64,000 nt of DNA from a virus. A program made the translations under genes and the position numbers. The notes beneath the pieces were generated by a model that searched no databases, was not told where the DNA came from, and was given only the letters and a program-made list of their open reading frames with translations. Below are positions 24,444 to 46,030 of this stretch, piece after piece (the first letter of the stretch is position 1; each line of letters starts with the position of its first letter). The stretch spans positions 1 through 64,000 of the IMG/VR virus record IMGVR_UViG_3300031576_000014; one strand, written 5' to 3'.

Positions 24444-25073
24444 CTAAGCCGCCGGAGGGCGCTCCGTGTCCGGCCGGTAACGGTCGACCCATGCGACGAC
24501 CTTCCAGAAGAGATCGTCGACGCTCTCCTCTGCGTCGAATTCCCGCGACCCGCCGCACGGCGCCATCGCGTTCGCTCGCACCCAGACGTAGCGCTCGGCC
24601 ACGCGCTCGACCAGCTCCGGCCGTTCGTAGATCTCCGGCTTCTTGTCCCGCTTCGCCATGCGCAGGACGAGCGTCGTCGGCGACGCTTTCAGGACCACGT
24701 AGACGGTCGGACTGACGACCGGCGCGTTGATGCGCAGAAGCCACTGCGTGTGCGCCGCCGCCTTTCTCTTGTCTTCGAGGTGGAGCGCGCCGTAGACGAG
24801 AGCGCTCATCGTCCAGCGGTCCGCGACCAGGCACCTGCCCGCGTTCTTCATCTCCCAGATCCCCGCGTCGCGCGCGAGCCTGTCCGCCGTGTACGCGCAT
24901 TGCATTTCGACCGGGTCTAGCGGCTCTTCGCCGGAGAGCCCGCGCCTGACCAGCCTGCCGATCGGCGACGCGCTGCACCCCGGCACCAGCTCTCCGCCGT
25001 AATGCTCGAGCAGCCGCTCGACCTGGGTACTTTTTCCAGAACCATCCGGTCCCTCTACAGCGATGAAAGTCAT
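24444..25073 (-). CDS. tmk: Thymidylate (dTMP) kinase
   Basis: FIAVEGPDGSGKST P-loop; ADRW motif. Confidence 0.9.
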   Translation of the reverse strand: MTFIAVEGPDGSGKSTQVERLLEHYGGELVPGCSASPIGRLVRRGLSGEEPLDPVEMQCAYTADRLARDAGIWEMKNAGRCLVADRWTMSALVYGALHLEDKRKAAAHTQWLLRINAPVVSPTVYVVLKASPTTLVLRMAKRDKKPEIYERPELVERVAERYVWVRANAMAPCGGSREFDAEESVDDLFWKVVAWVDRYRPDTERPPAA

Positions 25074-25329
25074 TCTGCGCGTCTCCTTCGAACGATCACT
25101 TCTTTGAGCGGGTTGTCCTTGTGAAGATGCACCCGGGCGAACGTCAGCACGTGCTGCCGCACGGCGCCCGTCCCGCATGTCGTCTTGAACTCCGTGCCGC
25201 AGACGGTGCAGCGCGCGCGCACGATCCTCGGAAGGAGCACCCCGTCCTCGACCTCGACGGGCGAGAATCGCCCGAACACGTGCGGACACCATCTCGGGGA
25301 GTACGTCTCCCAGGCTGCGTCCGGCTCGC

Positions 25330-25680
25330 TCATCCGGGCAGCGCCTTCAGAAGCCGCGCGCGCGAGCGCGCCAGCCATCCCTTCCAGACGATGCGGAACC
25401 GGCGCGCGTGCGCCTTCTTCCCCGTCACCTCCTCCGCGCTCCAGCCCTCCCTCCGCCGCAGGAAGTCGACGGCGAGCGCGAACCAGAACGGAAGCTCCTT
25501 GACCGTGTACGGCACAACCACGTCGAACGCCCCGCGACGATGCAGGAGCCGCTTGTGCTTCCTGACCAGCCAGGCCGCGCACGCCGGCCCGTGGCGCTCG
25601 ACCACCGCGTCGCGCGCAACGTTCTCCGCCGGCTCCGGCGCGGCCAGCGCGAGCAGCTTGTCGCGGTGCGCAGCGCGCAT
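25330..25680 (-). CDS. Hypothetical protein
   Basis: Coupled ORF. Confidence 0.5.
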   Translation of the reverse strand: MRAAHRDKLLALAAPEPAENVARDAVVERHGPACAAWLVRKHKRLLHRRGAFDVVVPYTVKELPFWFALAVDFLRRREGWSAEEVTGKKAHARRFRIVWKGWLARSRARLLKALPG

Positions 25681-26233: not shown

Positions 26234-26845
26234 TCAGCACGCGCTCTCCGCCTCGATCGCCGCCCGGTTCGCCTGGAGGACCGCGAGGACGAGCAGCGCG
26301 GCCGTGCGCGGCGCCACCTCCGCCTGACGGCCCGTCTCGAGGAGGGCTGCCACGACCTTGGCGATCTTCTCGACCGCGAGCTTCGCCAGCCAGACCTCCT
26401 TCGCCTCCATCTCGACGAAGACCGCGGGCGAGCGCGCGTCGAGAGCGTGGCCCGTCGCGAGAAGAAGCACCGGCCCGGGGACGGCCACGCCGTTCACGGT
26501 CGAGACCCACTGCTCCTCGACCCCGTCGAAGAACTTCTCGACCGGCCCCATCGCCATCGTCGGCGCGTGGAACACCCAAGCCTTGCGCTTCTCCAGGTCG
26601 CGGCCCCATACGATCGGGTCCGGAGCCGGAGCGTCGGGCAGACCGTCGTTGTCCTCGTCCTTCAGAAGCCTCTCCGTCGCCTCGATCGACGGCGTTGGTG
26701 CTGGGACGCTCGGGTCAGCGGGGACGCAGCCTTCGTGGATGCATCCTGGCCCGCACGCGCAACCCTCGACGGTGCACGCCATCACGCCTCCCCGCCGCTC
26801 GTGCAGGAGGCTGCTGTGGCCGCAAACGCACGCGGCGCTGCTCAT
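26234..26845 (-). CDS. Hypothetical protein, Cys-rich N-terminus
   Basis: CVCGH...C...CAC; ATGA overlap. Confidence 0.6.
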   Translation of the reverse strand: MSSAACVCGHSSLLHERRGGVMACTVEGCACGPGCIHEGCVPADPSVPAPTPSIEATERLLKDEDNDGLPDAPAPDPIVWGRDLEKRKAWVFHAPTMAMGPVEKFFDGVEEQWVSTVNGVAVPGPVLLLATGHALDARSPAVFVEMEAKEVWLAKLAVEKIAKVVAALLETGRQAEVAPRTAALLVLAVLQANRAAIEAESAC

Positions 26846-27258
26846 GCCCTTCTCCTCGCGATCCTGTTGATGAACGCCATGTGATCCTCCGCGTCCCTTG
26901 CCGCGTCGCGCACGCCCTCGACCGGGACGTCGACCTCGCCCGAGAGCATGATCCCGGGCTGCCACTTCCAGTCCGGATCGAGGTGGTTCGCGACCACGTC
27001 CGGCGGAACCTTGCCGGCGAAGAAGTCCGCCGTCCGCTCGACGTGCTCGTAGCCCCTCTGGTAGCCCGCCTGGTAGCAGATCCTCCCGTGCTCCTGCGAG
27101 AGCCTCACCCAGTCCGCGCGCGTCGCCTTCGGGTACGCGTTCGCGAAGGCGACCACGACCTCCGAGAGCCTCTTCGGGAGCTGCGGACCCTCCTCGAACG
27201 TGCCGAAGAGCTTCTCTTTGACCCTGCGCAGCCACCTGACGACGGGCGTCTCGCTCAT
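26842..27258 (-). CDS. Hypothetical protein
   Basis: ATGA overlap with the UDG-like gene. Confidence 0.65.
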   Translation of the reverse strand: MSETPVVRWLRRVKEKLFGTFEEGPQLPKRLSEVVVAFANAYPKATRADWVRLSQEHGRICYQAGYQRGYEHVERTADFFAGKVPPDVVANHLDPDWKWQPGIMLSGEVDVPVEGVRDAARDAEDHMAFINRIARRRA

Positions 27259-27731
27259 GCGAAGACTTCCCTGAGGAACTTCTCCGCGCGCGCCCGGTTG
27301 CCGACGTCGTTCCACCAGCGGTTGACGCCCGACGGATGCGGGACGACCACCGCGTCCACCCAGCGCCCGCCTTTCCAAATCACGAACCACCGGAAGTACT
27401 CGGCTCTCCTGGGCGGGCACGCACCCACGCTGAACGTCGCCCCGTCCATGAACGCGCGGTAGACGTTCTTCCCAAGAAGGACGACCACCCTGGCCTTCCC
27501 GAACCGCATCAGGCGCGCCGCCCTGGAAGCGTCTCCCCTCGGAAAGCAGTCGCCCTTGCCGTTCTTGCCGTGATAGCGGCCGAGGAGGTTCACGCACCGC
27601 GCGCTGCCGCGCAGATCCCCGACGCCGGCGATCTGCTCGAGCCTCCGCCCGGAGCGTCCGTCGAGGACCCTGCGCCTCCCCGCCCTCCGCGAGGGAGCCT
27701 GCCCGACTACGAGGATCTTCGGGCGATCCAT
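27255..27731 (-). CDS. Uracil-DNA glycosylase superfamily protein
   Basis: ILVVGQAPS, GRSGRRL, VVLLGK, PHPSGVNRWWN. Confidence 0.8.
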   Translation of the reverse strand: MDRPKILVVGQAPSRRAGRRRVLDGRSGRRLEQIAGVGDLRGSARCVNLLGRYHGKNGKGDCFPRGDASRAARLMRFGKARVVVLLGKNVYRAFMDGATFSVGACPPRRAEYFRWFVIWKGGRWVDAVVVPHPSGVNRWWNDVGNRARAEKFLREVFA

Positions 27732-28441
27732 GCGGCGAAGCCCAGGCTCCTCCAGAAGCAGTCGACGTCGTCGAAGCCGCTCGCGCGCAGCATCTCCTCG
27801 TTCCAGCGCGCCGTCAGGGGCACCAGCACGCCCTCGAGCGAGAGCTTCTTCCTCGCGATCTGGTCGTCCGTGTACCCCGCGACGCGCTTCCTGTCCTCGT
27901 GCGCGGCCACGAGCAGCGCATCGATCGCCGCGCTCGCCCCGATGACCTTCTCGACGAGGATCAACGCTCCTCCGCCCTCCGTATGCTCCCAGACGTCGCG
28001 CAGGATCCGCAGGCGATGCTCGAGCGGCGTGAACTGGAGCGTGAGCACGCACATCGTCAGCGCGGCGGAGGATCGGATCGGGTAGCCCGCCCGCACGAGA
28101 TCGTGCCGGAATATCTGCACATGCTGCTCCTTCGCGAAGCGGGAGCACGCTGCCTCGATCATCGGCTCCGAGACGTCGACGCCGTAGAACTCGTCCCAGC
28201 CGGCGGACGCGGCCACCAGATCAGCGATGGCGTCCCCGCGCGAGCAGCCGAGGTCGACCACCTTGTGCACGACCCTGACCTTGTGGCGCAGCCCGAGCAC
28301 GTGGGAGGCGACCTCGTGCACGAGCTTCCTCATCAGCGCGTAGTCCGGGATCGAGCGCTCGAGCATGTCCGGGAAGGAGTCGGCCACGCTCTGGTCGAAC
28401 TTCCAGCGCCCCTCCGGCATCGTCTCGTCCTTGACCGTCAT
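27707..28441 (-). CDS. cmoA: CmoA-like carboxy-S-adenosylmethionine synthase
   Basis: WKFDQSVADSFPDMLERSIPDY, VDLGCSRG, LTLQF, LILVEK, KKLSLEGVL, GF..VDCFWRSLGF match CmoA along its length. Confidence 0.85.
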   Translation of the reverse strand: MTVKDETMPEGRWKFDQSVADSFPDMLERSIPDYALMRKLVHEVASHVLGLRHKVRVVHKVVDLGCSRGDAIADLVAASAGWDEFYGVDVSEPMIEAACSRFAKEQHVQIFRHDLVRAGYPIRSSAALTMCVLTLQFTPLEHRLRILRDVWEHTEGGGALILVEKVIGASAAIDALLVAAHEDRKRVAGYTDDQIARKKLSLEGVLVPLTARWNEEMLRASGFDDVDCFWRSLGFAAWIARRSS

Positions 28442-29817
28442 CGCCGTTTCTTTGCCGCCAGCAGCCCGTCCCGGACCACGGCGGCCACGGCCCGCATCAT
28501 GAGGGGAGGAACCGCCCTCCCGCACCTCTCCCACATCTGCTGGTACGTGCCCGTGAGCACGAAGTCGTCCGGGAACGAGCAGATGCGCTTCAGCTCCGCG
28601 ATCGTGAACTTCCGCGGCTCCGTCGGGTGCGTCGGGCCCGCTGCTCCAGCGTTTCCTCCCTTTGCCGTGATCGCCGGCGAAGACTCGTTCGTGCCCCCCC
28701 TGACCAGGTTTAGATACTTCTCTGACTTTCCACCCTCCGCCAGCCGATGCCACTCCGGACCGATCACGAAGCGCTCGATATTCGACGCGTCCTCTTCCTC
28801 GACTTGGAACTGGAACGGCGCGCACCCGATCGTGTCCCCGCCGAGCACGGTCGGACACGGATCATCAAGCGGGATCTCCTTCCCCTTCATGTCGAAGGGC
28901 GCCTTGTTGCCGTGCCGCACGCGCACCTGCGACGCAAACCCAGTCCCCATCCCGGCCGCGGACACTGTCGGCGCCGGTTCGTCAGACGACAACATCCTCT
29001 CGCGTGCCGGCGCTCCTCCCGGCCTATACCGGGTCGTAATCTGCGGACCCTCTGATGGTTCGTCGTCGACCGCCATGATCTGGGAGAAAGTTCTGGGTCT
29101 ATTATGCGTCATCACCGTCGGCGCCGGTTCGTTGCTTCGTTCTCCTTTCTTGGTGACAACCCGCAGGGACTCGAAAACGTCGCGCAGCGTGTAGAAATAC
29201 GGGAGCGGCGTCGGGTGCGCGGGCTCGATGTCGAGATCCTCGCGGAAGCCGACGAAGAACAAGCGCTGCCGCGACTGCGGAACGCCGAGCCACTTCGCAT
29301 CGAGAACACGCGCAGCGACTCGGTAGCCGGACTCCTTCAGCTCCTTCAAGATCTCAAGGAAGTAGCCCTTCGCGACGCCCTTCACGAGCCCTGAGACGTT
29401 CTCCGCGACGAACGCGCGCGGCTTCAACCCTCGAAGGATCCGCACGAACTCGAAGAAGAGATCGTCCGTCCTCTGGCGAGTGTCGCTGTACGCCTTGACC
29501 GCTCCCCAGTCGCGCTCGCGCTTGCCGCTCGTTGAAAAAGCCGCGCATGGGGGTGACCCGTCAAGCACGTCCAGCTCGCCGATCTTCATCCCGGTCTGCG
29601 CAAGGATCTCCTTCGGCTCGACCTTCCTGACGTCCCTGTCGTCGACCGGCGTCCCGGGGAAGTTCGCCGCGTACGTTTCTCGCGCTGCCTTGACGAACTC
29701 GCTCGCCCAAACGACGTGCATGCCGGCCATCGCGTAGCCGAGCGAGGAGCCGCCCCCTCCAGAGAAGAGGCTAACGACCTTGAGCCCGTTGCGCGGGACT
29801 GCGCGGACCTCGGCCAT
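28438..29817 (-). CDS. DNA cytosine-C5 methyltransferase family enzyme, predicted carboxymethyltransferase
   Basis: Motif I LFSGGGG, IV GSPPC, VI ENV, VIII QSRQR; motif X reads GRAVPP instead of GNAV. Confidence 0.9.
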   Translation of the reverse strand: MAEVRAVPRNGLKVVSLFSGGGGSSLGYAMAGMHVVWASEFVKAARETYAANFPGTPVDDRDVRKVEPKEILAQTGMKIGELDVLDGSPPCAAFSTSGKRERDWGAVKAYSDTRQRTDDLFFEFVRILRGLKPRAFVAENVSGLVKGVAKGYFLEILKELKESGYRVAARVLDAKWLGVPQSRQRLFFVGFREDLDIEPAHPTPLPYFYTLRDVFESLRVVTKKGERSNEPAPTVMTHNRPRTFSQIMAVDDEPSEGPQITTRYRPGGAPARERMLSSDEPAPTVSAAGMGTGFASQVRVRHGNKAPFDMKGKEIPLDDPCPTVLGGDTIGCAPFQFQVEEEDASNIERFVIGPEWHRLAEGGKSEKYLNLVRGGTNESSPAITAKGGNAGAAGPTHPTEPRKFTIAELKRICSFPDDFVLTGTYQQMWERCGRAVPPLMMRAVAAVVRDGLLAAKKRR

Positions 29818-30088
29818 CGACGGCAACCGGTACGAGGGCTTCGACGGCGCGGATGGACTCGTCCCGGCACCGGGCGACGAGCGCGGCGTAGACGTTCCTG
29901 ACAGGGCCCTCGACGACGCGCGACGCAAGCTGCTCCTCCCTCTTCGGATCGTACACCGGCAGCCCGGACTCCGCCTTCGCCCGCGCGGCCTCCAGGCTCA
30001 GCTCGAGCCGACGCTTGAGCAGGAAGAGGATCCGGATGTCGAGGTTGTCGATGTCGTGGCGGACCTGCTCGAGCGCGCGCGTGTTCAT
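29771..30088 (-). CDS. Chorismate mutase (AroQ, type II)
   Basis: LEQVRHDIDNLDIRILFLLKRRLELSLEAARAKAESGLPVYDPKRE has the AroQ R..ID..D, R, K and D..RE residues. Confidence 0.88.
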   Translation of the reverse strand: MNTRALEQVRHDIDNLDIRILFLLKRRLELSLEAARAKAESGLPVYDPKREEQLASRVVEGPVRNVYAALVARCRDESIRAVEALVPVAVDGRGPRSPAQRAQGR

Positions 30089-30705
30089 CCCGCGCCCTTT
30101 GCCGCCCTCCCGTTCTTGCCGCCGCCGCGAAGCTCCGTCTTGCCCCCGCTCCATTTGTAGCCGCACTTCGGGCAGCGGAAGTCGACCTGGATGTTCTCGT
30201 TGAACATCGGGAAGCTCTCTGGCGGCTGCACTACCAGCCGGTCAACGTCGCCCCCCGCGAAGCCTGTCCCGTAGAGGTCGCCGGCGGTCGCCCTTTCACG
30301 GAGAAGGACGAGCAGGATCGTGTTGTCGTAGCCCGCCCGGTCGCTCGTCCGGTTGTCCGCAAGCATGATCCGCATCGCCGTCGCATCGTCGACGTCGACG
30401 AAGATCGCCGGAACGCGCTTTAGCCCTTTGACGCTCGCGCTCTTCCAGCGATGGTTGCCGACGAGGATCAGGTTGGTCGACTTCTGAACAAGGCACGCGC
30501 CGTAGAAGCCGTTCGCCTCGACGGACTCGTCGATCAGCCCCTGCGCACCACGGCGGGGGTTGCGCGGGTGAGGGGCTATCGAGCCCGTGGGCACGACGCG
30601 GTAGCGCTGCTTGACGATCTCCGCCGCGACTGCCGCCGACGCGTCGTTCGAGGGCGCCGCCGGCGAGGTCACGGCCTCCGGGGCAGCCTCTTTCGCTCTC
30701 CGCAT
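30085..30705 (-). CDS. ParB-like N-terminal domain protein with C-terminal Zn ribbon
   Basis: PHPRNPR, ILVGNHR, LADNRT, CPKCGYKW. Confidence 0.8.
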   Translation of the reverse strand: MRRAKEAAPEAVTSPAAPSNDASAAVAAEIVKQRYRVVPTGSIAPHPRNPRRGAQGLIDESVEANGFYGACLVQKSTNLILVGNHRWKSASVKGLKRVPAIFVDVDDATAMRIMLADNRTSDRAGYDNTILLVLLRERATAGDLYGTGFAGGDVDRLVVQPPESFPMFNENIQVDFRCPKCGYKWSGGKTELRGGGKNGRAAKGAG

Positions 30706-31286
30706 CCCGCGCTCGCCTCCTGCCTGGCAGCATCCCCCTGCGCGTTCCAACCTTCAAGCGTCATCGACGGCATCCCGAGACGCGCGCGCCCTGCGTTCGC
30801 GACGGCGAACGCGTCGACCTGGTCCGCCGTCCACTTCTCCCCAGGCTGGGGGAAAGCTGCGAAGAACGCGCGCTGCACCGCCTCCCCGGACCTCTCGTGG
30901 GGCACTTTTCCGAGCAGCGCCTTGCGGATCGTCGGGATCGCGATCGGCCGCGCGACGATGCCCTTCTCCCGGTAGAGCGCCAGCTTGATGCACCCGGTCA
31001 GCTCCGCCACGCCGCGCGCGTGCGCGAGCGCGGAACCGAAGCTGTAGTCCTCGACGAAGACGACGACGTCCGACGAGATCAGGCCCACGACCGCGCGCGA
31101 GATCTCGCCCAGGCGCACGCAGCGGTCCTCCAGCGTGTGCTCCTTCGGAAGCGCGTGCGCGCAAGAAAAGACGGACACTTCCTCGATACTCTTCGCGTCC
31201 CAGCTGCAAAGGACGAGCGCCGCCGCCGTCCCCCGGAGCGACACGTCGAGCCCCCAAACATCGACGGTGGCTCGGCGACGCGTCAC
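30669..31286 (-). CDS. RuvC-like Holliday junction resolvase
   Basis: VWGLDVSLRGT, VFVEDY, DQVDAFAVA. Confidence 0.75.
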   Translation of the reverse strand: MTRRRATVDVWGLDVSLRGTAAALVLCSWDAKSIEEVSVFSCAHALPKEHTLEDRCVRLGEISRAVVGLISSDVVVFVEDYSFGSALAHARGVAELTGCIKLALYREKGIVARPIAIPTIRKALLGKVPHERSGEAVQRAFFAAFPQPGEKWTADQVDAFAVANAGRARLGMPSMTLEGWNAQGDAARQEASAGCGERKRLPRRP

Positions 31287-33178
31287 GCGACCACCTCCGC
31301 GCGCGACCAACCGCCCTCGCTCACGATCTCGATCCGCCCGGGCAAGCCGTGCATGGTCTGGGGATCGTGCGAGACGACGAACGCCTGCTCGACCCCGCCG
31401 CGGAGCACGAGCGCGCCGAGGTGCCGCGCAAACGCCCGCCGTTTCGACGTGTCGAGCGACCCGAACGGCTCGTCGAGGACGACGACGCCCCACGGGCTCC
31501 CGCGCTCCCCGCGCAGCCAGCCCCCCGCCGCGAGCCCGACCGCTGCGCCGGCGAGGTCGTCCGCCCCGCCAGAGTCGTGCGACCTGTTGAACTCGAGCTT
31601 CGCCACGATGTTCGGACCCCTGCCCGCACCGCAGCGCGTGCAAACCTTCGCCGTCCTCGACGACGGGAACAGCATGCCGCACCCGTCGCACGCGTGCGCC
31701 AGCCCTTGGCCCTCGCGCGACCAGCGGACGTCGACGCGCAGGTCGATCCCTGCCTCCGCCAGCCCCGCGTTCGCATCCTCCTCGATCTCCGCCAGCGCGT
31801 CTTCCGCAATCTTCCTCTGCGCACCGTTGCGCCCGAAGACCACCGCGGCCTCTCTCATGATCTCCGCGAAAGGCCGCGACACCTCGATCTCCTTCTCGAT
31901 CTCCGCGATCCTTCTCCTGGTCTCCGCTGCGCGCGAGACCGCCACCGCAGCCTCTGCGACCGCGCTCGTGGCCGCCCGCACCTGCTCGTACGCCTCGTCG
32001 TGCGCCCGCCGCAGCGCTGCCGCGTCCCCGGCCTCCGGAACGTTCCTCGCCGCCTCGGCGGCCGGCAGCATCCCCGCGATCTGCCCCCTCAGCGCATCGC
32101 CCTTGGCCTGCTGCCGCTCCGCCGCCTGGGTCTGCGCCTGCGCGCGCCCGTGCGCGGCCAGCGCCTTCTCGTGGACCGCCTTCGCCTCCTCGTAGGCATG
32201 CTGGAAGCGCTCCGCCTCCGTCCGGCACCTTTCCCTGTTCTCCTCGATGAACGCCCGCGCCGGGCACGGCGCCGAGACGACGGGACAAAGGCCGGCGAAG
32301 TCGCCGCCCGCGATCCCGCGGAAATGGTCGCGTCTCTTCATGTGGGCGCGCATCGCTTCCCCCGTCTCGTTCGCCTCCCTCCACCGGTCCTTCGCGTCCG
32401 CCGGCGCCTTCGCCTGCACATGCTTCGCCAGCTCCTCGGACAACCGCACGAACTCCACGCGCACGTGCCGCGCCTTCTCCCGTGCCCCGTTCTCCTCAAG
32501 GTCCGCCGCAGCGTCCGACAGCTTCGCCCGGGCATGCTTCTCGCTGACCTTGGCCGCCTCGTGGGTCTTCAGAAGGGCCCCCTGGTCCCCGTCCTGGCTC
32601 CGCAGCACCTTCAGGAGCGCCTCCTTCTCCGCCGTCCCGTCCGTCGACGCTGCGAGCTTCGCGCGCGCGATCTCCGCGCAGCGCTCGACGGGCGCGAGCG
32701 ACAGCCAAGAGACGACCACCTGCGTCCGGACCTCCGGCCGCGCGACGACGAGCTGCGAGAGCTTTTTTTGCTCGAAGAAGCTCGCCGTCATGAAGTCCTC
32801 CGACGAAAGCCCGACGAGGTCGTGGATCTTCTTCTGGGCCTCGTCCTTCCAGAGAACGCGCCCGCCGTCGTGGAGGGAAAGCTTCGTCGGCTTCCCCCGC
32901 TCGCGCGAGCGGCTCAGCACCTCGCCCGTGCTCAGAAGAACGACGACGCGGCCGTGGGCCTGCCCGTTCGAGATGAGCCCGTCCTCCGTCCGGTGCCGGT
33001 GCCAGCCGTCGAACGCGAAGCGGAGAGCCTCGAGCAGGTGCGTCTTGCCGAGCCAGTTCGAACACTCCGGATCGTCCACGCTCCTCGCGACGACGCCGTG
33101 CGCGCGCGCTCCTAGCCGGAGACGGTGCTCGCCGCGGAACGGACCCCAGTTCTCGACGAGCAGCTCGCGGACGTGCAT
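31283..33178 (-). CDS. SbcC/Rad50-like ATPase
   Basis: ENWGPF, NWLGKT, coiled coil with CP...CP hook, SGG, LDEPFGSLD, VVSH. Confidence 0.88.
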   Translation of the reverse strand: MHVRELLVENWGPFRGEHRLRLGARAHGVVARSVDDPECSNWLGKTHLLEALRFAFDGWHRHRTEDGLISNGQAHGRVVVLLSTGEVLSRSRERGKPTKLSLHDGGRVLWKDEAQKKIHDLVGLSSEDFMTASFFEQKKLSQLVVARPEVRTQVVVSWLSLAPVERCAEIARAKLAASTDGTAEKEALLKVLRSQDGDQGALLKTHEAAKVSEKHARAKLSDAAADLEENGAREKARHVRVEFVRLSEELAKHVQAKAPADAKDRWREANETGEAMRAHMKRRDHFRGIAGGDFAGLCPVVSAPCPARAFIEENRERCRTEAERFQHAYEEAKAVHEKALAAHGRAQAQTQAAERQQAKGDALRGQIAGMLPAAEAARNVPEAGDAAALRRAHDEAYEQVRAATSAVAEAAVAVSRAAETRRRIAEIEKEIEVSRPFAEIMREAAVVFGRNGAQRKIAEDALAEIEEDANAGLAEAGIDLRVDVRWSREGQGLAHACDGCGMLFPSSRTAKVCTRCGAGRGPNIVAKLEFNRSHDSGGADDLAGAAVGLAAGGWLRGERGSPWGVVVLDEPFGSLDTSKRRAFARHLGALVLRGGVEQAFVVSHDPQTMHGLPGRIEIVSEGGWSRAEVVA

Positions 33179-33588
33179 CAGAGACCGGCCTCGTCCATGA
33201 TCGCCTCGCACGCCTCGCGCAGCGCCTTCTTGTCCTCGAACGAGCACGCCTCGACGACCTCGAGCACGACGTCCCGCGCCCTTGCCCGCTTCTTCCGGAC
33301 GCGCGCGAGCGCCTCGTCGGGAAGCCTCGCCCGCCTCCGGCGCAGAACCCGTATCTCCCCCTCCGCGCCCATCTTCCGGGCCCACGCCCGCACGGCCTCG
33401 ACCTGCTCGTCCGCGACGTCCGGGGGCGCGCGCACACGCACGAGCGCGCCCGCCGTCATCTGGTCGAACGCCATGTCTCCGTCCCAGACCGGACTGTCCT
33501 CGCCGATCGTCACGAGCCGCCTCGTCTCGACAGGGAAGAACTCCGTCTTCGGGACGAGCCGGATCGCGGGGTTTCTCCGGCGCGTCAA
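33178..33588 (-). CDS. Hypothetical protein, possibly detached SbcD C-terminal domain
   Basis: Lies between sbcD-like and sbcC-like genes; ALVRVR motif. Confidence 0.55.
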   Translation of the reverse strand: MTRRRNPAIRLVPKTEFFPVETRRLVTIGEDSPVWDGDMAFDQMTAGALVRVRAPPDVADEQVEAVRAWARKMGAEGEIRVLRRRRARLPDEALARVRKKRARARDVVLEVVEACSFEDKKALREACEAIMDEAGL

Positions 33589-34304
33589 GCGACCTCGGAG
33601 ACGATGAAGCCCGGATCGTTCCCTTCCTCCGCGAACGTCAACCGCACGAGGGAGCCCGGGATCTCGATTCCGTCCGGCGTCGTCTGCCGGCGGTGGTAGT
33701 GCCCGTTGATCATGAGACGCGCCTTGCCGCGAAGCTGCTCGACGGGAAAGAGCACCTCCCGCCCGCGGGGCATCTCCGCCGTCTCCTCCCCCGGGATCAC
33801 GCCCGGGACGTGCAGGTGTCCTAAGACGACCAGCGGCAGCTCAGAGCTTTCCTTCACCGCGGCCGCCGCCGCCGCCGCCGGATCGTAGGCGCAGGACCGC
33901 GCGGTGTACGGAAGCGTCAAGAACCTGGTGCTCCTCCAGACGAAGCTCTCCGCCTTCTCGAAAACCCCCGTCAGCCCTGCGCACGAGCCCAGCGAGCAGA
34001 GCGGCTCGAGCGTGGTCCTTCCCCGCCCGTCCTCGATCACGTCGTGGTTGCCCGCCACCCAGAACGACATGATGCCCCGGGACCGAAGCTCGCGCGCGGC
34101 GTCGAGCGCGAGCGCGACGCACCGGAAGACCGAGGACCCGGAGTCCGGGTCGCAGAGGTCGCCCGTCATCGCGTAGAGGTCGACCTTCCTGTCGACCGCC
34201 TCCTTGACCGTCTGCTCGACGGCGCGCGCGACGTCGTCGAAGCGGTCGACGCCCCGCGTGCTCCAGTCGGCGTGCCAATCGCTACAGGTCAGGATGCGGA
34301 GCAC
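33585..34304 (-). CDS. SbcD/Mre11-like metallophosphoesterase
   Basis: SDWH, GDLCD, GNHD, GHYH, PGSL. Confidence 0.88.
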   Translation of the reverse strand: MLRILTCSDWHADWSTRGVDRFDDVARAVEQTVKEAVDRKVDLYAMTGDLCDPDSGSSVFRCVALALDAARELRSRGIMSFWVAGNHDVIEDGRGRTTLEPLCSLGSCAGLTGVFEKAESFVWRSTRFLTLPYTARSCAYDPAAAAAAAVKESSELPLVVLGHLHVPGVIPGEETAEMPRGREVLFPVEQLRGKARLMINGHYHRRQTTPDGIEIPGSLVRLTFAEEGNDPGFIVSEVA

Positions 34305-34649
34305 GCGTTCCCCGGCTTCATGGTCTCATCCCGTGCCGCCCGAGCAGCTCGAGCAGCAGGAGCCTGTCCGTCGAGTTCCACGCGTTGCGGCGCAGCGACT
34401 CGACGGCGTGGCGCGGCGGCGTCTGCACGCGATCCCAATCGTCCAGCGTGAACCCCGGGGCCCGCGCGTACACCCTGACCGGCCCGTCCTGCTCGTCCCT
34501 GCGAACAGCGGTCAAAAGGTCGCCGCTCGACCGTTCCGAGAACACCTCGTAACGGAACCTCCGGTGGCCGCGCAACGCCTGGAAACTGTCGGGCCACTCG
34601 CGCCACCACGGCGAAACGGCCAACAGCCTGCAACCCTCGAACGCGCGGG

Positions 34650-35279
34650 TCACGCCTCGCACTCCGCCTGCACCAGCGGCAGCCGCGTCCAGGTCCCCGC
34701 CTTCGCGTCCGGGCCCCAGAAATACCAGGAGTAGGCCGTCGCGTCGTGCTTCCCGTCACCCGTGAACGACGGCCGCTTGTCGAGCATGCCCAGCTCCGGC
34801 GGATGCTTGGCGAGGAACCGGGCCCTCTCCTGGATGCGCGGGTACTTCGACCACGGGCAGGATTCCATCCAGCCCGTGCGGCAGAGCATCGCCACCGTCT
34901 TGGCGATCTCCATCGCCCGCGCGGCGAACTCGCGCGCAAGCTCGAACGGCGGGTTGAAGATCGCGTAGTCGTAGGAGCCCGCGAGGCGTGCGCGGTCGAG
35001 GACGTCGCCCCGGAGAACGTGCCAGTCCCCGTTGATGCTCTGCATCTTCTTCTCCGCCGCGTCGGCCAACCTGGGTTGAAGTTCGACCCCTGTGATGATC
35101 GCCGACGGGACGAAGCGGAGAACCTCCGCCATGACGGCGCCCCCTCCGCAACCGAGATCGATCATCCTTGGCCCGTTGTCCCGCATGTCGAGGCGTCCGA
35201 GCGCCGCGCGCGTGCACCAGCCCGGCGTCGCGTAATGCCCGCCCTTCCTGCTCCTCTCCCCCCTGCCCCTCGCGCTCAT
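34650..35279 (-). CDS. DNA amino-methyltransferase (N6A-type)
   Basis: YATP, IDLGCGGG, NPPF, RPSF..DG..D...Y.W. Confidence 0.85.
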   Translation of the reverse strand: MSARGRGERSRKGGHYATPGWCTRAALGRLDMRDNGPRMIDLGCGGGAVMAEVLRFVPSAIITGVELQPRLADAAEKKMQSINGDWHVLRGDVLDRARLAGSYDYAIFNPPFELAREFAARAMEIAKTVAMLCRTGWMESCPWSKYPRIQERARFLAKHPPELGMLDKRPSFTGDGKHDATAYSWYFWGPDAKAGTWTRLPLVQAECEA

Positions 35280-36436
35280 GCCTTCTCCCTCTCGTCGCTC
35301 TCCGCGCAGCGCTGCCGGATCTCCGCGACGATCTCCGCCAAAATCTCCGGCTCCCCGCGCATCGCCTCGACGAACACCGCCTCCGTCCTCCAACGCTTGC
35401 CGCCCTTCTTCCAGGCGACGGACGAGCCCGAGCGCTCGACCACGCGCATGCGCTGCCCGAAGTCGGCCGCGTCGCGCGCGAGGTCGAAGGCCGGCGGCGA
35501 GAGCTGCGAGTGGAAGTAGGTCACCACGTTCCGCTCGTCCCGCTCCGCGATCTTCGTCTTCTTCACGGTCAGGCGGTGCCGCTCGCCGACCGTCGCCAGC
35601 GTGCCGGCGTCCTTGCTTCCGGTCGTGACGTACGCGTCGCGCTCGACGCGCACGAGCAGGCTCGACTCGTAGACGACCGACCTGCCTCCCCCGATCCTGT
35701 AATCGTTGCCGAACTTCCTCGTCCACGCGTCCGCGTCCGGGTCCTCGTACTCGCGCGTCACGGCGATCCAGGTGCAGCCCGTGCGCTCCATCAGGGGGAC
35801 AAGCTCGTCGTACCACTCGGAGTTGAGCTTCGCGCGGAGCTGGCCAGCGCGGCCCCCCAGCACCCGCCCGCCTTTTTTCTTGTCGTCCTTCCCCTCCTCC
35901 TTCTGGAGACGCTTCATCAGGTCCTTCGGCACAAGCTTGCGCAGCGAGTCGACCACGACGATCCCTGTCGCGTCTGCCGGAACCTGCCGAGCGTCCCGCA
36001 TGCGCGCGACCGTCTCGCAGAACTCCCGCACCCGCTCGACGCACGCCTCGTAGCTCTCCGGCCGGATCGCGAGGAAGCGGTCGCTCTCGGCGAGATCGCC
36101 GAAGAGCTGCCGGACCCAGGTGATCGGCGTCGTCCGCTCCGCGTCGACGAGGAGCGCGAAGTGGCCCTGCGCGAGGAACGAGTAGACGAGCCCGAGCATC
36201 ATCAGCGTCTTCCCCTCCGCAGAGGGTCCGTGGATCGCGCAGCACCGCTCGAGCGGCCAACCGCCGACGCCGAGGGCGTGGTCGACCTGCGGCCAGATCG
36301 TGCGGACGGCTCGCACGACCGTCAAGGCGTCGCGCGCGGTCCTCAAGCGCGCGAACCCCGAAGCGGCGGCTCCCAAAGCCGCGCTCGTTTTCCCGCGCGC
36401 CGCTCGCATCTCCGCCGTCAACTTCCGTCTGGCCAT
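35276..36436 (-). CDS. recA: RecA-like recombinase
   Basis: DHALGVGGWP, GPSAEGKT, DAE, VVDSL, GGR. Confidence 0.88.
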   Translation of the reverse strand: MARRKLTAEMRAARGKTSAALGAAASGFARLRTARDALTVVRAVRTIWPQVDHALGVGGWPLERCCAIHGPSAEGKTLMMLGLVYSFLAQGHFALLVDAERTTPITWVRQLFGDLAESDRFLAIRPESYEACVERVREFCETVARMRDARQVPADATGIVVVDSLRKLVPKDLMKRLQKEEGKDDKKKGGRVLGGRAGQLRAKLNSEWYDELVPLMERTGCTWIAVTREYEDPDADAWTRKFGNDYRIGGGRSVVYESSLLVRVERDAYVTTGSKDAGTLATVGERHRLTVKKTKIAERDERNVVTYFHSQLSPPAFDLARDAADFGQRMRVVERSGSSVAWKKGGKRWRTEAVFVEAMRGEPEILAEIVAEIRQRCAESDEREKA

Positions 36437-36440
36437 CGGT

Positions 36441-36908
36441 TCATCTCGAATATTTTCGATGCTCGAGTCCGTGACAGCGAGTGCAAAGCCATCGGACGTC
36501 GAGCGGCTTGCTGTAATCGTGATGGTGAGCCTGCGCCTTCTTCTTCCCGCATTTCTGGCAGGGTTTCTTCTTGATTCGTCCGCACTCTACCGCATGCCCG
36601 AGAACGACTCGTGCCTTGCGCCGCTCCGGATAGCGTGCGTGATGCTCGCGGTGATAGCGCGCAAAACGTTCTGGATCGCGGTGCCGCGCATTCTTCTGAT
36701 AGCGCGACACAGCTCGGCGCCGCACTGGTCGATCCTGACGTTCGCTTTCGTATTGTTTTCGATTCGCGCTCCGGTTGATTACGTGCACGTCTTTCTTCGT
36801 GCACTCTTTGCACTTGCCGAGATGCCCATCCGCCATCTGCGGATGCTTGTAAAACGCGCTGAGAGAAAGAACTTTCCCACACTTGAAACATTGCTTCCGC
36901 CTTCGCAT
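36441..36908 (-). CDS. Zn-finger/HNH-like endonuclease
   Basis: CFKC..FYK...CKEC; CQKC..AHHHDYSKPLDVRWLCTRCH; lower GC than neighbours. Confidence 0.75.
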   Translation of the reverse strand: MRRRKQCFKCGKVLSLSAFYKHPQMADGHLGKCKECTKKDVHVINRSANRKQYESERQDRPVRRRAVSRYQKNARHRDPERFARYHREHHARYPERRKARVVLGHAVECGRIKKKPCQKCGKKKAQAHHHDYSKPLDVRWLCTRCHGLEHRKYSR

Positions 36909-36954
36909 TCCACAAGCGAATCATGAGATAAAACCCTTGTCTAGAAAGGAATTA

Positions 36955-38218
36955 TCAAAACGGGATGTCGTCCCCGCGATCGACCGTGCCTGGTGGTGGA
37001 CGTTCGTCACCTGCGCCCGCTTTTTTTGCCGTCCTTCTTGGACGCCACCTCTTTTTCCGACGCCGGTGCGTCCTCGTCGACCTCGTACTCGCACCCGCAG
37101 CGCGGGCACTTGTCCATCTTCGGATGCATCGGCTCGTTGCAGTCGTCGCACGGGATCCACCCTGTCTTGTCCTCCTCCCCTTTCGGCTTCTCCGCTTTCT
37201 TGCGGCCGGAGCGGGCGCGGTCCTGCCTCTCCTCTTCGCCGCCGCCGCGGCGCTCGACTTCTCTGTCGTGCTCCCTCTTCGCAGCCACCTTCCTGAAAAG
37301 CTTCTCCCAGGGAAAATCGACGACCGCGTACTTCTCCATCACGGCGCGGAGCGTTGCCTGGTTCATCGGTTCGAGGAAGACGGACAGGTCCGGGGGCTCT
37401 CCCCGGATCAGCTTCTCGATCTCCGGCGTGATCTTCGCGCGCTCGTACGGCCGCGCATGGTAGCGCTTGTTGAACGCGATCCCCTTCGACCCGTCGTACG
37501 TCAGCTCGATCGCGTACGGCCGGATCATCGGGTTGCCATCCTCCTCGCGGTCGAGCGTCGCCATCCGGTCGCTGATGACCGTCTTGATCTTGTCGCCCAC
37601 GTCCTGCGGCTGGATCGCGATCTGGACGCCGTCGCTCGCCTTCTCGTTGTTGACCACGGTCATCGCGTACTGGAGCTTCGCCATGCCGTTCTCGCGCCAG
37701 GCCTCGCTCGGGCGTATCCCGTGCTCCTTCAGGTCCTCCTCCTCCTCCTCGTCCAGCTCCCGCCCGAAGAGCGCGAGCATCCCGCCGGCGTGCAGCGTGA
37801 CGTTGTCGTCGTCGCTCGTCGCCCCCGTGAACTCGAAGACCGGGTCCGTCCAGGCGAGATCGCCCGCCTCGACCGCCACGGAGAGGTGCTCGAGCAAGAA
37901 GCACATCCCGCACTCCTGCGGCCTCTCCTTCCGGCTCCCGTCGTCGTGCGTCTTGTACTGCCTGCGGAGCACCTGCTCGTTCTCCGGGCAGTTGTGCACC
38001 AACGAAACCCAGCGGACCGTTGTTTTCCCCCTCTCTTCCTTGACGATTTGCTTCGGAAACCGGTGGCCCCACTTCGCCACCGGGAACCGCTTCGTGTGCA
38101 GCCAGACGACGATGCGTCCGTCGTCCTTCCAGTCCTCCAGCAGATCCCCTCCTCCGCGCTCGACGCCGCGGTGCTTGAGGAAGTCGTCGATAGAGTTGAA
38201 CTCTCCCCTGTCTGCCAT
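36955..38218 (-). CDS. Single-stranded DNA-binding protein (ORF as read ends at 37007; DDIPF tail in +1 frame ends at 36955)
   Basis: Acidic protein between PolB and RecA; GDDIPF-stop lies just beyond an A7 run. Confidence 0.65.
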
Positions 38219-38966
38219 CTGCTTTTTCTCCCGCGCCTCTAGTTCGATCTAGGGGGTCCTTGGGGCCCTCGAAGTCACAGATGCCGCCCTATCGGCGTCC
38301 CGGGGGCCTCAGCGGACGGTTCTTGAGCACCTCCGGGGTCGGGACCTCCTTCCCCCTCGGAGGCTTCTCGCTCCACCAAGCCGGCGGAGCCGGGTCGATC
38401 TCCCGCTGCCCGCGCGTCCGCTCGACGAACCAGGCGTGGACGACGAGGTTGCCGGCGGTGCCCTTCCCGAAAACCTCCGAGTCGTCGTGCAGGGCGCTCT
38501 TCGGGATCCAGCGGACGTCGTCGTGGCGCTCGCGCGAGCGCGGAACGACCCTCAGGTCCGGCCCGCTCGCCAGGATCGCTTCCTCCGTCTCGACCGCGCA
38601 CTCGCACCCGGGAAAGACGTAGACCGGTGCGTCGTCAGACGCACGGCTCATTCTTCACCAGACCCGCCAAAGGATCCCCTTCGCCTGCCTCGACCGCCCG
38701 GGAACGCCACGTCTCTGATTCGACGATGTAGTTCGCACAGACCAGCGCGGCCTCTTCGTCGTGCGGCTTGAACGCGACCTCCGCGATCGCCCTCCGCTGC
38801 ACCGCCATGTAGCGGTTCGACGGACGCTTGTCGCTCTCCTGACCCGGTCGATACTCCTTCCAGACCGCGCGCCGGAGCAGGGCCGGCACGCGGTACCAGT
38901 GGTTCTTGCACATGAACATGTGCGGCGGGATCTCCTTCGCGCACCCGTGAGCGTGGCAAGCGTGCC

Positions 38967-39752
38967 TCAACGGCGGCCCGCCATCGTGTTCAGGGAACGG
39001 CACCGGCTCTCCCATGCCTCGACGAGATGCTTGAGCGATTCGACCGTCGCCTTCGCGCGCGAGCGGGAGCGCTCCTGCGAGCGGTACTCGTCCGGGAAAA
39101 GCTCGGCGCACTTCATCTCGACGTCCTTGTCCGTGATCGTCTTGTTGCGCCGGCCCGCCTCCTTCTCCGCCTGGAGGAGCTTCGTCGACTCCGCCCAGAG
39201 CGTCGCGAAGACGACGTTGTTCTCCCTCTCGTAGTCCTCCTGCACGACCTTCGCCGTCACGTAGAGCTTGTTCGCCTGCCGCGAGTTCTTCTCCGCCTCG
39301 TCGAGCGCGCGCAGGACGAGCCCGTGCTCCGTCCGCCCGTCGCCCAGCTTGAGGATCTTCTCGAGCCGCTCCCAGACCTTCGGGATCTCCGCGTCCTGGA
39401 GAAAGATGCGCTCGACCGCGTACGCGAACCCTCCTGGCAGCGGAACCTTCTTCGGCGCGTTCGCGCTCTCCCAGACGAGGGCGCGCGTCGACTCCGCGCG
39501 GTCCTTCTCCTCCCGCTTCGCTCCGCTCTCGAGCGCGCGCCCCAGGTCCGCGCTCGTCTCGTCCACCTTCTTCTTCTTGTCGCCCATCTCACGGTGAAGC
39601 CTCGACGCCTCCTCGTCGCAGCGGGGACAGTACTCCGCATAGTCGATCTTGTGGCGCTCGCAGAAGCGGTCGAGCGGTGTTGTTTCCGTCGAAGACGCCG
39701 GCGGGGCCGGGTCGATGATCTGAGCCGCGGCCACCGCCTTTTTCCTTCTCAC
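38967..39752 (-). CDS. Coiled-coil protein, possibly UvsY-like recombination mediator
   Basis: ITDKDVE...DEY...AWESR; genomic context. Confidence 0.4.
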   Translation of the reverse strand: MRRKKAVAAAQIIDPAPPASSTETTPLDRFCERHKIDYAEYCPRCDEEASRLHREMGDKKKKVDETSADLGRALESGAKREEKDRAESTRALVWESANAPKKVPLPGGFAYAVERIFLQDAEIPKVWERLEKILKLGDGRTEHGLVLRALDEAEKNSRQANKLYVTAKVVQEDYERENNVVFATLWAESTKLLQAEKEAGRRNKTITDKDVEMKCAELFPDEYRSQERSRSRAKATVESLKHLVEAWESRCRSLNTMAGRR

Positions 39753-42331
39753 AGCAAGCTCGCCTCCCAGGCTTCCGTTGCCGCCCGCGCTGCCAGGCGA
39801 AGCCCGTAGATCTCCGCGAGCATCCGCTGCGACCCGGAGACGCGCAGCCTCGAATCAAGGACAGCAAGGGCACCGGACGCGAGCCGCACGTGAAGGACAA
39901 GCTGCTTCGTGCCCGGGTAGCGGACGACCGCGGCCTTGATGTCCTCGAACACGCCCTCCTCGCTCTCCAGGAGATCGACGACGCACGCGCCCGCTGCCGG
40001 CGTCGACGCCTCGAAGCCGAGCTGCCCTTCGAGGACGCGCGCCTTCCGCCCGCGCGCCTTCGGGGGACGCACACGCTCGTAGCCCGTCTTCCAGTCGACG
40101 TCCGGGAAGGCCGCCTCGAGCAGCGCCTGCGTCGGCTTGTAGACCTGCTTCTCCCAGTAATAGAAGCGGTCGACGTCGACGTCCCCGTACTGGTCGATCG
40201 GCAGCACGACCTGCGGCGAGACGGAACCGTCTGCGACGAAGTATTCGACCCTCGTCCCCTCCCCGACGTGCTCCCCACGCTCGCGCAAGGCGCGCGCGAC
40301 GCGCACGTGCGCCGGCTCCGTGCCCTTTTCGTCATCGTCCCCGCCGCCCTTGCCGTACTCGTGAAGGGGCTTCGAGATCCCCTTCACGATCACGATCTCC
40401 TCGACAGGCAGTTGATCGTTGAGCACGTGCCGGAGTGCGCGGTCGAGCGCCTCGCGGTAGGGCTCCGCCCGGAGATGCCCCTTCCCGATGAGGTCGATCA
40501 TCTCTCCCTGAAGCCTGCGCGTCAGGAGGGCTGCGTCGCCGCGCTTGTACGCGAGTCCTTTGATCTCCGGTTTCGCCCCCGCCTCCGCCTGCTTGCCCTT
40601 GTAGTGCTCCCAGAACCCGACGTAGCTCTTGGCAGCGACGATCACGAGAGACCTGAACTTCTTCTCGTACGCGAGCTTGACCTCGTTGCGGACGCAGCCG
40701 GCCTCCCTCAGCATGGCCGGGAACAGCTCCGCGTTGCACCACGCGACGAAGGCCGCGAACTCCGTGTCCGAGACGTTGTCGACGAAGATGGCGTCCGTGT
40801 CGCCGTACCCGACGCGCAGGCTCCGCTCCGCCGCCGCCGCGATCGTGCTCTTCAGCAACCAAACGCCGTTCTGCGTGATCGACTCCGCGACGCGCTTGTC
40901 GAAGTAGCGCGAGAACATCGACCCGACGACCCCGTAGAACGCGAGCCCTACGACCTTGTACGCCGCCGACTTCCTGCCCGCCGCGTGCCACGCTTCCGTG
41001 CCCGGCGGAAGCTCCGCCTTCTTCTCGACCCAAACCTGGCGCTTGCTCATCAGGTCGCGCAGCGCCGTCGGCAAGATGCCCTCCGCACCGTTGTCGAAGT
41101 GGTGGCCGGTGAGGGGACAGCGGCAGAGACCTTCGGGGACCGGGCCCGCCGGGGACGCGTCCCGCCAGGTCTCTGGGCTCATGTTCCACGTCAAGATGAT
41201 CGACGGGTAGATCGACGCGAAGTCCGCGACGTGGACGCCGCGGGCGATCCCGCGAAACTCCGGCTCCATCACGTGCGCGCCCTCGTACTGCTCCGGCTTC
41301 AGACCCTCCTTGTAGAACTTCGTCGGGAAGCGCACGCCGCGCTCCTGCCCGAGCCGGAGCATGTAGCCGTCCATCTGCTGCGTCGGAAGGAGCCCGCGCG
41401 AGTCCGGGAGCACGCGGCAGACCTCCGCGATCGTGTTGAAGAGGTCGCCGAAGCCGGTCTTCTCCTCGATCTCGCGGAGAAGCACCGCATCCTTCAGGTT
41501 GTACTTCGGAAGGCGAGGATCCTTCGCCGCCCACGACTCGTACGTCCGGGACGCGTCGAAGTCGTCCTTCCCGTGTCCGAGGATCGCCGTCGCGATGCTG
41601 TGGAGCTTCATCGACTGCTTCTCGTCGCCGCTCTCCGCGCTCATCTTGTTCATGCGCTCGAAGAGCGCGAGATGGTCGAGGTAGTGGAGCCTCCGCGTCT
41701 CGACTCCGAGGTTCAGGAGGTCCGTTCGCGCCCACCAGACGGGAAAGTCGAAACCGTCGCCGGACCAGGCGAGAACCTGGTCGTAGCCCTCCATCAGCTC
41801 CCAAAGCTCGCCGAGCAGGTCGCCCTCGGCGCCGTTCGTCTCCTCCGCGAGCACGCGCACGAGAGCGGTCTCCCCGTCGTCGACGACCGCCCAGGAAAGG
41901 ACGCGCGCGTCCTCTTTGCGCGAGAAGGGCACGCGCGAGTCGATCTCGAAGTCGACGTAGCAGCGGCGCGGCTTCTCGATCGTCGCTCCCGTGTCGGTGA
42001 ACCATCGCCGCACCGCTCCGACGTCTGCCTCGTACGTCTTGACGCCCTTCGAGTCGAAGAAGGACGTGTTCTCCCCGCGCGTCCGGCACATCTGGGATCG
42101 CACGTAGTCGTCCTTGAAGCCGAGCCTTGCCCAGCTCCCCTCGACCTTGAACTCCCGCGTGAAGCGCGAGCTGCGAAGCTGGCGCGCGAGCGCTTCGTCG
42201 ACGTCCGCGGCGCGGAGGTACGCGACCCACTCCGCGCGCTCGCGGCGCTCGAAGAGCTTCCCCTGCGCGTCGCGCCGCCAGATCGAGACCTGGTTGCCGT
42301 CGACGAACGCGCTCAGGATCGGGTCGGTCAT
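39749..42331 (-). CDS. Family B DNA polymerase
   Basis: Exo motifs DFE, FDF, YNLKD; Pol motifs DFASIYPSII, K..GLAFYG, YGDTD. Confidence 0.95.
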   Translation of the reverse strand: MTDPILSAFVDGNQVSIWRRDAQGKLFERRERAEWVAYLRAADVDEALARQLRSSRFTREFKVEGSWARLGFKDDYVRSQMCRTRGENTSFFDSKGVKTYEADVGAVRRWFTDTGATIEKPRRCYVDFEIDSRVPFSRKEDARVLSWAVVDDGETALVRVLAEETNGAEGDLLGELWELMEGYDQVLAWSGDGFDFPVWWARTDLLNLGVETRRLHYLDHLALFERMNKMSAESGDEKQSMKLHSIATAILGHGKDDFDASRTYESWAAKDPRLPKYNLKDAVLLREIEEKTGFGDLFNTIAEVCRVLPDSRGLLPTQQMDGYMLRLGQERGVRFPTKFYKEGLKPEQYEGAHVMEPEFRGIARGVHVADFASIYPSIILTWNMSPETWRDASPAGPVPEGLCRCPLTGHHFDNGAEGILPTALRDLMSKRQVWVEKKAELPPGTEAWHAAGRKSAAYKVVGLAFYGVVGSMFSRYFDKRVAESITQNGVWLLKSTIAAAAERSLRVGYGDTDAIFVDNVSDTEFAAFVAWCNAELFPAMLREAGCVRNEVKLAYEKKFRSLVIVAAKSYVGFWEHYKGKQAEAGAKPEIKGLAYKRGDAALLTRRLQGEMIDLIGKGHLRAEPYREALDRALRHVLNDQLPVEEIVIVKGISKPLHEYGKGGGDDDEKGTEPAHVRVARALRERGEHVGEGTRVEYFVADGSVSPQVVLPIDQYGDVDVDRFYYWEKQVYKPTQALLEAAFPDVDWKTGYERVRPPKARGRKARVLEGQLGFEASTPAAGACVVDLLESEEGVFEDIKAAVVRYPGTKQLVLHVRLASGALAVLDSRLRVSGSQRMLAEIYGLRLAARAATEAWEASLL

Positions 42332-42353
42332 CTCTGCGTTGGTTTGCCGCCCC

Positions 42354-42373
42354 ACGTAAACCGCGGTTTACGT
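42354..42373. repeat. 20-bp palindrome copy 6
   Basis: Intergenic, upstream of PolB. Confidence 0.97.
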
Positions 42374-42384
42374 CGACCGCCTGG

Positions 42385-43488: not shown

Positions 43489-44138
43489 GGGGACACCTCC
43501 ATCGCGATGCTCCTCACTATGCCGCGCACGTCCGCCCGCGCGTGCTCCCGGCTCTGCCAGCGGTAGCGGAGCCTTTCGCGGCAGTCGTCGTAGATCTCGT
43601 CCGCCGCGGCGTCCGCGTCGCGCGCGCCCGCGTACGCGCGCAGGACGTCCTGGAAAGGCAGCCTCGCTATCGCGCGCCGGAGGTCGAGCGCCTCCTCCTG
43701 GCCGTCCTCGACCGGGATCTCCACGTCCCCCGCCTCTTCTCCGGCCTTCGCAAGGCTGCTCATGGGTGCCTCGAACCGGGACGGACCCTTCCTCCGGTGC
43801 TGCTCCGCCCCGCGCGCCTTGTGCGCGACCTTGATCGTCGCCTTGATGGCCGCGAAAGAAACGAAGGACCAGGCCGGACAGCCGCGCGCCGCGTCGAACT
43901 TCCCGACCGCCTTCCACGCGAAGAAAAGCAGTTCCTGATAAAGGTCCTCCGCCGTCATCCAGGTCGGCAGACGGAACGAGCGCGCGATCGCGTGCGCGCG
44001 GCCCCTCCACGCCGGCGCTGTCCCGCGCACGAACTGCTCGAAGGTGACGGACCCGTCTCTCGCCCCGCGGGCGATCTCCTCGTTGTTCATCTTCCACGCT
44101 CCCGGCGCCTTGGGCGCCCTCTGCGAAAACGACTGCAC
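43485..44138 (-). CDS. Sigma-70 family sigma factor (region 2)
   Basis: AEDLYQE...WKAVGKFDAARG...FVSFA. Confidence 0.75.
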   Translation of the reverse strand: MQSFSQRAPKAPGAWKMNNEEIARGARDGSVTFEQFVRGTAPAWRGRAHAIARSFRLPTWMTAEDLYQELLFFAWKAVGKFDAARGCPAWSFVSFAAIKATIKVAHKARGAEQHRRKGPSRFEAPMSSLAKAGEEAGDVEIPVEDGQEEALDLRRAIARLPFQDVLRAYAGARDADAAADEIYDDCRERLRYRWQSREHARADVRGIVRSIAMEVSP

Positions 44139-44209
44139 GATCCCTTGGGGATCGATCCATTCTTAGCCGCCGCGCACTGCGTTTGGAAGCGCTTTCTCGG
44201 CCTGTTCCG

Positions 44210-44229
44210 ACGTAAACCGCGGTTTACGT
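44210..44229. repeat. 20-bp palindrome copy 7
   Basis: Intergenic, upstream of the sigma factor. Confidence 0.97.
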
Positions 44230-44300
44230 GAGGGCGGTCATCGAAGTCCCGCGCGAACGCGCGGTGTTCGCCCGCAATGCCTTACGATCCGCTTCAACTG

Positions 44301-44843: not shown

Positions 44844-44869
44844 GCCTCTAGTGGAGAACAATGCCGCCT

Positions 44870-46007: not shown

Positions 46008-46030
46008 GCGTCGTTTCTCACCTGCAATGC

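Follow-up and report, generated by a model that had tools for sequence, protein, structure and literature searches.

The question raised by this locus is whether a viral protein with the fold of a DNA cytosine-C5 methyltransferase, in which the Asn of motif X is replaced by Arg, uses Cx-SAM instead of SAM. We conclude that it very probably does, and that the open reading frame encodes an enzyme of the CmoX family that converts cytosines of the phage's own DNA to 5-carboxymethylcytosine (5cxmC). The evidence gathered here comes from sequence, alignments, fold, gene order and the co-occurrence of the Arg with CmoA in related loci, while for the chemistry, and for what the homologous Arg does, we rely on the literature on SpCmoX.

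The stretch of DNA analysed (the window, 64,000 nucleotides) belongs to a 94,582-bp IMG/VR virus record of an uncultured phage, rated 100% complete by CheckV. It has a GC content of ~67%, carries nearly all of its genes on the minus strand and contains no tRNA genes. A megablast search of the 10 kb around the transferase against cultured phages was empty, and the family B DNA polymerase (39749–42355, minus strand) has at most 27.5% identity to cultured phages and viruses among the matches listed. This polymerase lies in the replication and recombination module (31283–48095, minus strand) of the phage, which has no close relative in culture. The other members of the module, all on the minus strand, are an SbcC-like ATPase (31283–33385, a weak match), a metallophosphatase (33585–34304), a RecA-like protein (35276–36436), a sigma-70-like factor (43485–44138), a primase (45009–46487) and a DnaB-like helicase (46548–48095). 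A thymidylate kinase is found at 24444–25292.

The transferase is encoded by a minus-strand open reading frame at 28438–29928, which gives a 496-residue protein (P0001) with the C5-cytosine methyltransferase fold, matching Pfam PF00145 with E = 3e-58. Read on the minus strand, it contains ...YQQMWERCGRAVPPLMMRAV... and all of the C5-methyltransferase motifs I, IV, VI, VIII, IX and X. These are FSGGGG (motif I, 29749–29766), GSPPC with the catalytic Cys128 (motif IV, 29545–29559), ENV (motif VI, 29395–29403), QSRQR (motif VIII, 29263–29277), RKFTIAELKRICSFPDDF (motif IX, 28561–28614) and ERCGRAVPP (motif X, residues 467–475, 28504–28530), the last preceded by W466 to give WERCGRAVPP. The minus-strand reading bears out the original prediction of ERCGRAVPP with an Arg codon at 28516–28518; the codon is AGG and encodes Arg471, the residue that stands where motif X canonically has Asn and is predicted to contact the Cx-SAM carboxylate.

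The database gene call for this protein begins at ATG 29817 and is 459 residues long (P0003). A (K)PxY[RK]xP motif is found in 84 of 119 homologues, 24 residues ahead of motif I, and its version in the window, KPSYRLPSM (29815–29841, minus strand), is encoded upstream of ATG 29817. This ATG is the conserved Met of the KPxY[RK]xPxM motif, so the database call removes the motif. Residues 31–40 have a pLDDT of 95 in the AlphaFold2 model. TTG 29928 is the only canonical start codon upstream of ATG 29817, with GGGAGGAG located 6 nt before it, and is likely to be the true start. A start at this TTG produces a 158-nt out-of-frame overlap with the tail of the chorismate mutase gene. A fusion of chorismate mutase to the methyltransferase, or recoding, was considered and is unnecessary, as TTG 29928 with GGGAGGAG opens the frame with the N-terminal motif. 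A fusion is also at odds with the related locus L012, where chorismate mutase and CmoX are encoded by distinct genes that share just 11 nt.

Alignment of the protein with canonical enzymes places R471 in the same column as the Asn of M.HaeIII (GNAVP; pairwise HMMER) and of DNMT1 (GNAVPP), and opposite N436 in the GNSV of E. coli Dcm (MAFFT alignment A1). The replacement of the motif X Asn by Arg, as originally proposed, thus holds against all three enzymes, and the precedent then invoked for a gain of carboxymethyltransferase activity, M.MpeI N374K, is confirmed in the literature (PMC13288465). In an alignment of 70 homologues W466, E467, R468, G470, R471, V473, P474 and P475 are invariant. 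Of the 120 best database homologues, a motif search found 118 with Arg at the R471 position, and in a re-check only P0025 was without it; the classifiable loci, a count that takes in the window and the two reference phages, have it in 112 of 119 cases. Because of its invariance in the 70 homologues and its frequency in the best homologues and in the loci, R471 is no chance substitution, as judged from the sequences.

The closest solved relative by sequence is 8YF3 (E = 7e-66; the next structure scores 1e-27). This is SpCmoX, a natural DNA carboxymethyltransferase of Synechococcus phage S-B43, which produces 5-carboxymethylcytosine at GC sites (Yang et al., Nat Commun 2025, PMC12783734). The wild-type enzyme accepts Cx-SAM and refuses SAM; its Cx-SAM is made by the phage CmoA, and cmoA is required for 5cxmC in E. 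coli (PMC12783734). The 1.9 Å structure shows direct contact between the carboxymethyl group of Cx-SAM and Arg350, which stands in for Asn304 of M.HhaI, and the mutant R350N is inactive with both cofactors (PMC12783734). The same authors assembled 5,615 candidate CmoX from IMG/VR, UniProt and MGnify with two sequence criteria, R350 and, as the second, SPPC; many of the candidates adjoin CmoA, an AMP-forming ligase (CmoY) and a ParB-domain protein (PMC12783734).

Both features are found in the window protein, where R471 aligns to Arg350 of SpCmoX (pairwise HMMER and MAFFT alignment A1) and SPPC is formed by S125-P126-P127-C128. We built an AlphaFold2 model from the 70-sequence alignment, in which the catalytic core has a pLDDT above 90. 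Its best fold match in the PDB is again 8YF3 (E = 2e-27, TM 0.77 on the target), with HaeIII and HhaI ranking next. All of the published SpCmoX contacts with Cx-SAM (F25, E47, F48, D69, S95-P96-P97-C98 and R350) are conserved, and correspond in the alignment to F55, E77, F78, D99, S125-P126-P127-C128 and R471. The proposal that the Arg marks a Cx-SAM user and forms a salt bridge with the carboxylate is therefore supported by analogy with the homologous Arg350. By the same analogy, one would not expect the mutation R471N to make the enzyme use SAM: since R350N of SpCmoX is dead with both cofactors, the pocket would differ from that of the methyltransferases in more than the motif X residue, for example in SPPC as against the GFPC of Dcm.

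The transferase is the third gene in a cassette of four coupled minus-strand genes, in the order ParB, chorismate mutase, CmoX and CmoA. The first encodes a ParB_N-domain protein (30085–30750; PF02195, E = 6e-7) with a C-terminal CxxC...W-S-G tail resembling a zinc ribbon. The last, whose ATG shares the ATGA at 28438–28441 with the stop codon of CmoX, encodes a 244-residue homologue of CmoA (27707–28441) with a full-length match to TIGR00740 (E = 3.5e-34, 118.5 bits) and matches to the PDB entries 1IM8 and 4GEK. A gene for a predicted Cx-SAM synthase, as expected of a CmoX system, is thus present in the same genome. The homologue falls below the TIGR00740 equivalog cut-off (118.5 against 193.3 bits), which is tuned to the CmoA of the bacterial tRNA pathway. 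SpCmoA, whose activity has been validated by experiment and which served as a positive control, scores 115.6 bits, likewise under the cut-off. Because a proven Cx-SAM synthase scores alike, the cut-off is uninformative for phage CmoAs.

The E. coli CmoA residues Y39, D62, G64, S66, D89 and F137 are conserved in the window homologue. In the E. coli enzyme Arg199 forms a salt bridge with the cofactor carboxylate (PMC3663124); this residue is replaced by Lys in the window (the K198 region of P0002), and a Glu is aligned to it in SpCmoA. The Lys at the preceding position (K198 in E. coli) is invariant in all 82 CmoA sequences aligned, and this pattern suggests that the phage enzymes may depend on its equivalent. 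A gene of the UDG superfamily (27255–27731, minus strand; PF03167, E = 2e-9), with the first motif GQAPS, overlaps the end of cmoA. Homologues of it adjoin CmoX in 5 of 80 related loci, among them L020 and L006.

We examined the association of the Arg with CmoA in 125 related viral loci collected in three scans. For each locus we recorded which residue aligns with R471 and whether a CmoA homologue is encoded there. The 116 loci with a classifiable motif X that were used consist of 109 with Arg and seven with another residue (two Asn, four Lys in an IGKYM-GMSVPP context and one Met). CmoA is present in 106 of the 109 Arg-type loci, the three exceptions being short contigs of 4–7 kb, and in none of the seven others. 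Fisher's test gives p = 2.6e-9 for this association between loci that are related and hence not phylogenetically independent. The nearest Asn-type relative, L096, has no CmoA anywhere in its 46.8-kb record. A ParB gene is near CmoX in 82 of the 109 Arg-type loci, and a ligase of CmoY type is found in 55 of them.

The relatives of CmoX that are without the Arg are natural contrasts for the choice of cofactor. In P0025, SPPC is retained, motif X reads GNSVPP and the C-terminal end is duplicated; the Asn-type protein of L096 (10001–11110) reads GNSVAPP; and a small group among L121, L123–L125 and L132 has the motif IGKYM(V/I)GMSVPP, with ParB present and CmoA absent.

The second gene of the cassette, directly upstream of CmoX and with its ATG overlapping the ParB stop codon (ATGA), encodes a 105-residue AroQ-type chorismate mutase (29771–30088, minus strand), which matches PF01817 (CM_2) with E = 8.8e-15 and 55 bits against a cut-off of 27. 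It matches the PDB entries 1YBZ and 1ECM. In an alignment with 1YBZ, 2D8D and 1ECM the conserved Arg, Lys and Glu positions of AroQ helices 1 and 2 are present, and the Gln of helix 3 has no confident placement. Of 50 related viral records, two also have a CM_2 gene adjoining the cassette: L012, where ParB and CmoX flank it just as they do in the window, and the L020 record, where it directly follows cmoA. It is thus a rare but recurrent addition to the cassette. The enzyme likely supplies the prephenate used by CmoA, and its presence is an argument for the use of Cx-SAM that does not depend on the Arg. Yang et al. make no mention of chorismate and flag the supply of prephenate as an open question (PMC12783734). 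The chorismate mutase bears on this question and gives further genomic evidence for a cassette centred on Cx-SAM.

Taken together, these features allow a route to be proposed in which the activity of the window protein, its target sequence and its biological role are all inferred. Chorismate mutase would convert chorismate to prephenate, which the CmoA homologue would combine with SAM to make Cx-SAM on the spot. Cys128 of the SPPC in motif IV would attack C6 of a flipped-out cytosine, and the resulting C5 carbanion would take the carboxymethyl group from Cx-SAM. Arg471, placed beside the sulfonium in the position of the motif X Asn, would hold the carboxylate of that group. The 5cxmC formed would presumably shield the phage DNA from host nucleases.

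It might be argued that the protein is an ordinary SAM-dependent C5 methyltransferase, in which the Arg is an incidental feature of the lineage and CmoA acts elsewhere, for example on host tRNA. The databases do label the homologues as plain DNA cytosine methyltransferases, and CmoA genes in phages frequently carry the annotation tRNA methyltransferase. Against this stand the invariance of the Arg across the family, the way in which it tracks CmoA (106 of 109 loci as against 0 of 7), the crystal structure in which the homologous Arg sits on the carboxymethyl group of Cx-SAM (PMC12783734), and the report by Yang et al. that phage S-B43 is without CmoB (PMC12783734), which together make this explanation extremely improbable. 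An enzyme that takes both cofactors, like the engineered M.MpeI N374K, and leaves a mixture of 5mC and 5cxmC in the phage DNA is also very unlikely. A single change from Asn to a basic residue does suffice for the use of Cx-SAM in engineered CpG and GpC methyltransferases (PMC13288465), but the natural homologue SpCmoX accepted Cx-SAM only (PMC12783734), the window protein shares its pocket, including SPPC and all of the contact residues, and a dedicated CmoA and chorismate mutase point to a high supply of Cx-SAM.

A further possibility, which concerns the product rather than the cofactor, is that 5cxmC is an intermediate from which an unrecognised tailoring enzyme makes a hypermodified base, as CmoY does in S-B43. 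The CmoY-type ligases in about half of the Arg-type loci (55 of 109) favour this, as do the UDG-superfamily gene that follows cmoA and three open reading frames near the cassette that match no family (25330–25680, 26234–26851 and 26842–27261). On the other hand, PF00733 (the asparagine-synthase family) is absent from the whole of the 94,582-bp record, complete according to CheckV; tblastn with SpCmoY and with gp124 of Streptomyces phage TurkishDelight, the two CmoY types, finds no match in the genome (best E = 0.7); and about half of the related loci are also without a ligase. We regard such tailoring as unlikely, with some small chance of being right. Because no ligase of CmoY type was found by these searches, the final base is, on the genes present, probably plain 5cxmC.

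The region of the transferase in which the window protein departs most from SpCmoX is the variable, target-recognition region between motifs VIII and IX (28654–29127, minus strand). It is ~190 residues long and contains four copies of the element (D/E)-x-P-x-P-T-(V/I), starting at residues 268, 318, 357 and 417, whereas that of SpCmoX is ~80 residues long with a single D-x-P-x-P-T element. When the four modules are compared profile against profile, the probabilities are 75–97%. Among homologues the copy number ranges from 0 to 5 and rises with the length of the region. The AlphaFold pLDDT is below 50 for residues 256–337 and 361–376. Because the region is longer and has four elements rather than one, the target need not be GC and may differ from that of SpCmoX.

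The C5-methyltransferases of Bacillus phages that are multispecific carry stacked target-recognition domains. On the basis of the sequence repeats, there is a slender chance that the four tandem modules here are stacked domains of this kind and that, fed by a self-sufficient route from chorismate mutase through CmoA to CmoX with no ligase, one enzyme carboxymethylates several sequence contexts. If so, it would be a multispecific carboxymethyltransferase found in nature, and could provide new specificities for marking DNA in a form resistant to deamination.

The rule relating the Arg to Cx-SAM was published, and structurally explained, in December 2025 (PMC12783734), and the copy in the window adds little to it. 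What may be new is the coupling to chorismate mutase and the unusual variable region. The latter is unlike that of SpCmoX, the only characterised natural example, and natural enzymes that use Cx-SAM only and have other target sequences would widen the toolbox.

In comparison with known systems, the window enzyme resembles the canonical C5-methyltransferases E. coli Dcm, M.HaeIII and M.HhaI in its fold, its catalytic Cys and its ENV and QxRxR motifs. It differs from them in that they use SAM and have Asn in motif X, and from Dcm also in motif IV, where Dcm has GFPC in place of SPPC; the Dcm locus that we retrieved has no CmoA partner. The engineered M.MpeI N374K and M.CviPI variants share with it the change of the motif X Asn to a basic residue, and they accept Cx-SAM and yield 5cxmC (PMC13288465). 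They were derived from SAM-dependent enzymes and carry Lys, whereas the window enzyme is natural and carries Arg, and its characterised relative rejects SAM.

The likeness to SpCmoX extends to the fold, the motifs, SPPC, the motif X Arg and all of the Cx-SAM contacts, as well as to the N-terminal K-P-x-Y-K/R motif and a CmoA partner encoded by the phage. Their identity of ~40% (alignment A1) is confined to the catalytic core and does not include the variable region. The gene order is ParB, chorismate mutase, CmoX, CmoA in the window as against CmoA, CmoY, CmoX in S-B43, so that CmoY is missing and chorismate mutase is added. The closest match in a cultured phage is found in Streptomyces phage TurkishDelight (48% identity over 92% of the window transferase), which has the motif X sequence ERIGRAVPP and a genome of ~94 kb, similar in size to that of the window phage. 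Its genes gp122–gp125 encode, in turn, ParB, a methyltransferase, a protein with a glutamine-amidotransferase domain (homologous to ligases of CmoY type) and a second methyltransferase. As in the window, a ParB protein with a zinc-ribbon tail is located upstream and a CmoA homologue downstream; unlike in the window, gp124 ('glutamine amidotransferase domain') lies between CmoX and CmoA, and the retrieved locus is without the chorismate mutase that the window cassette carries.
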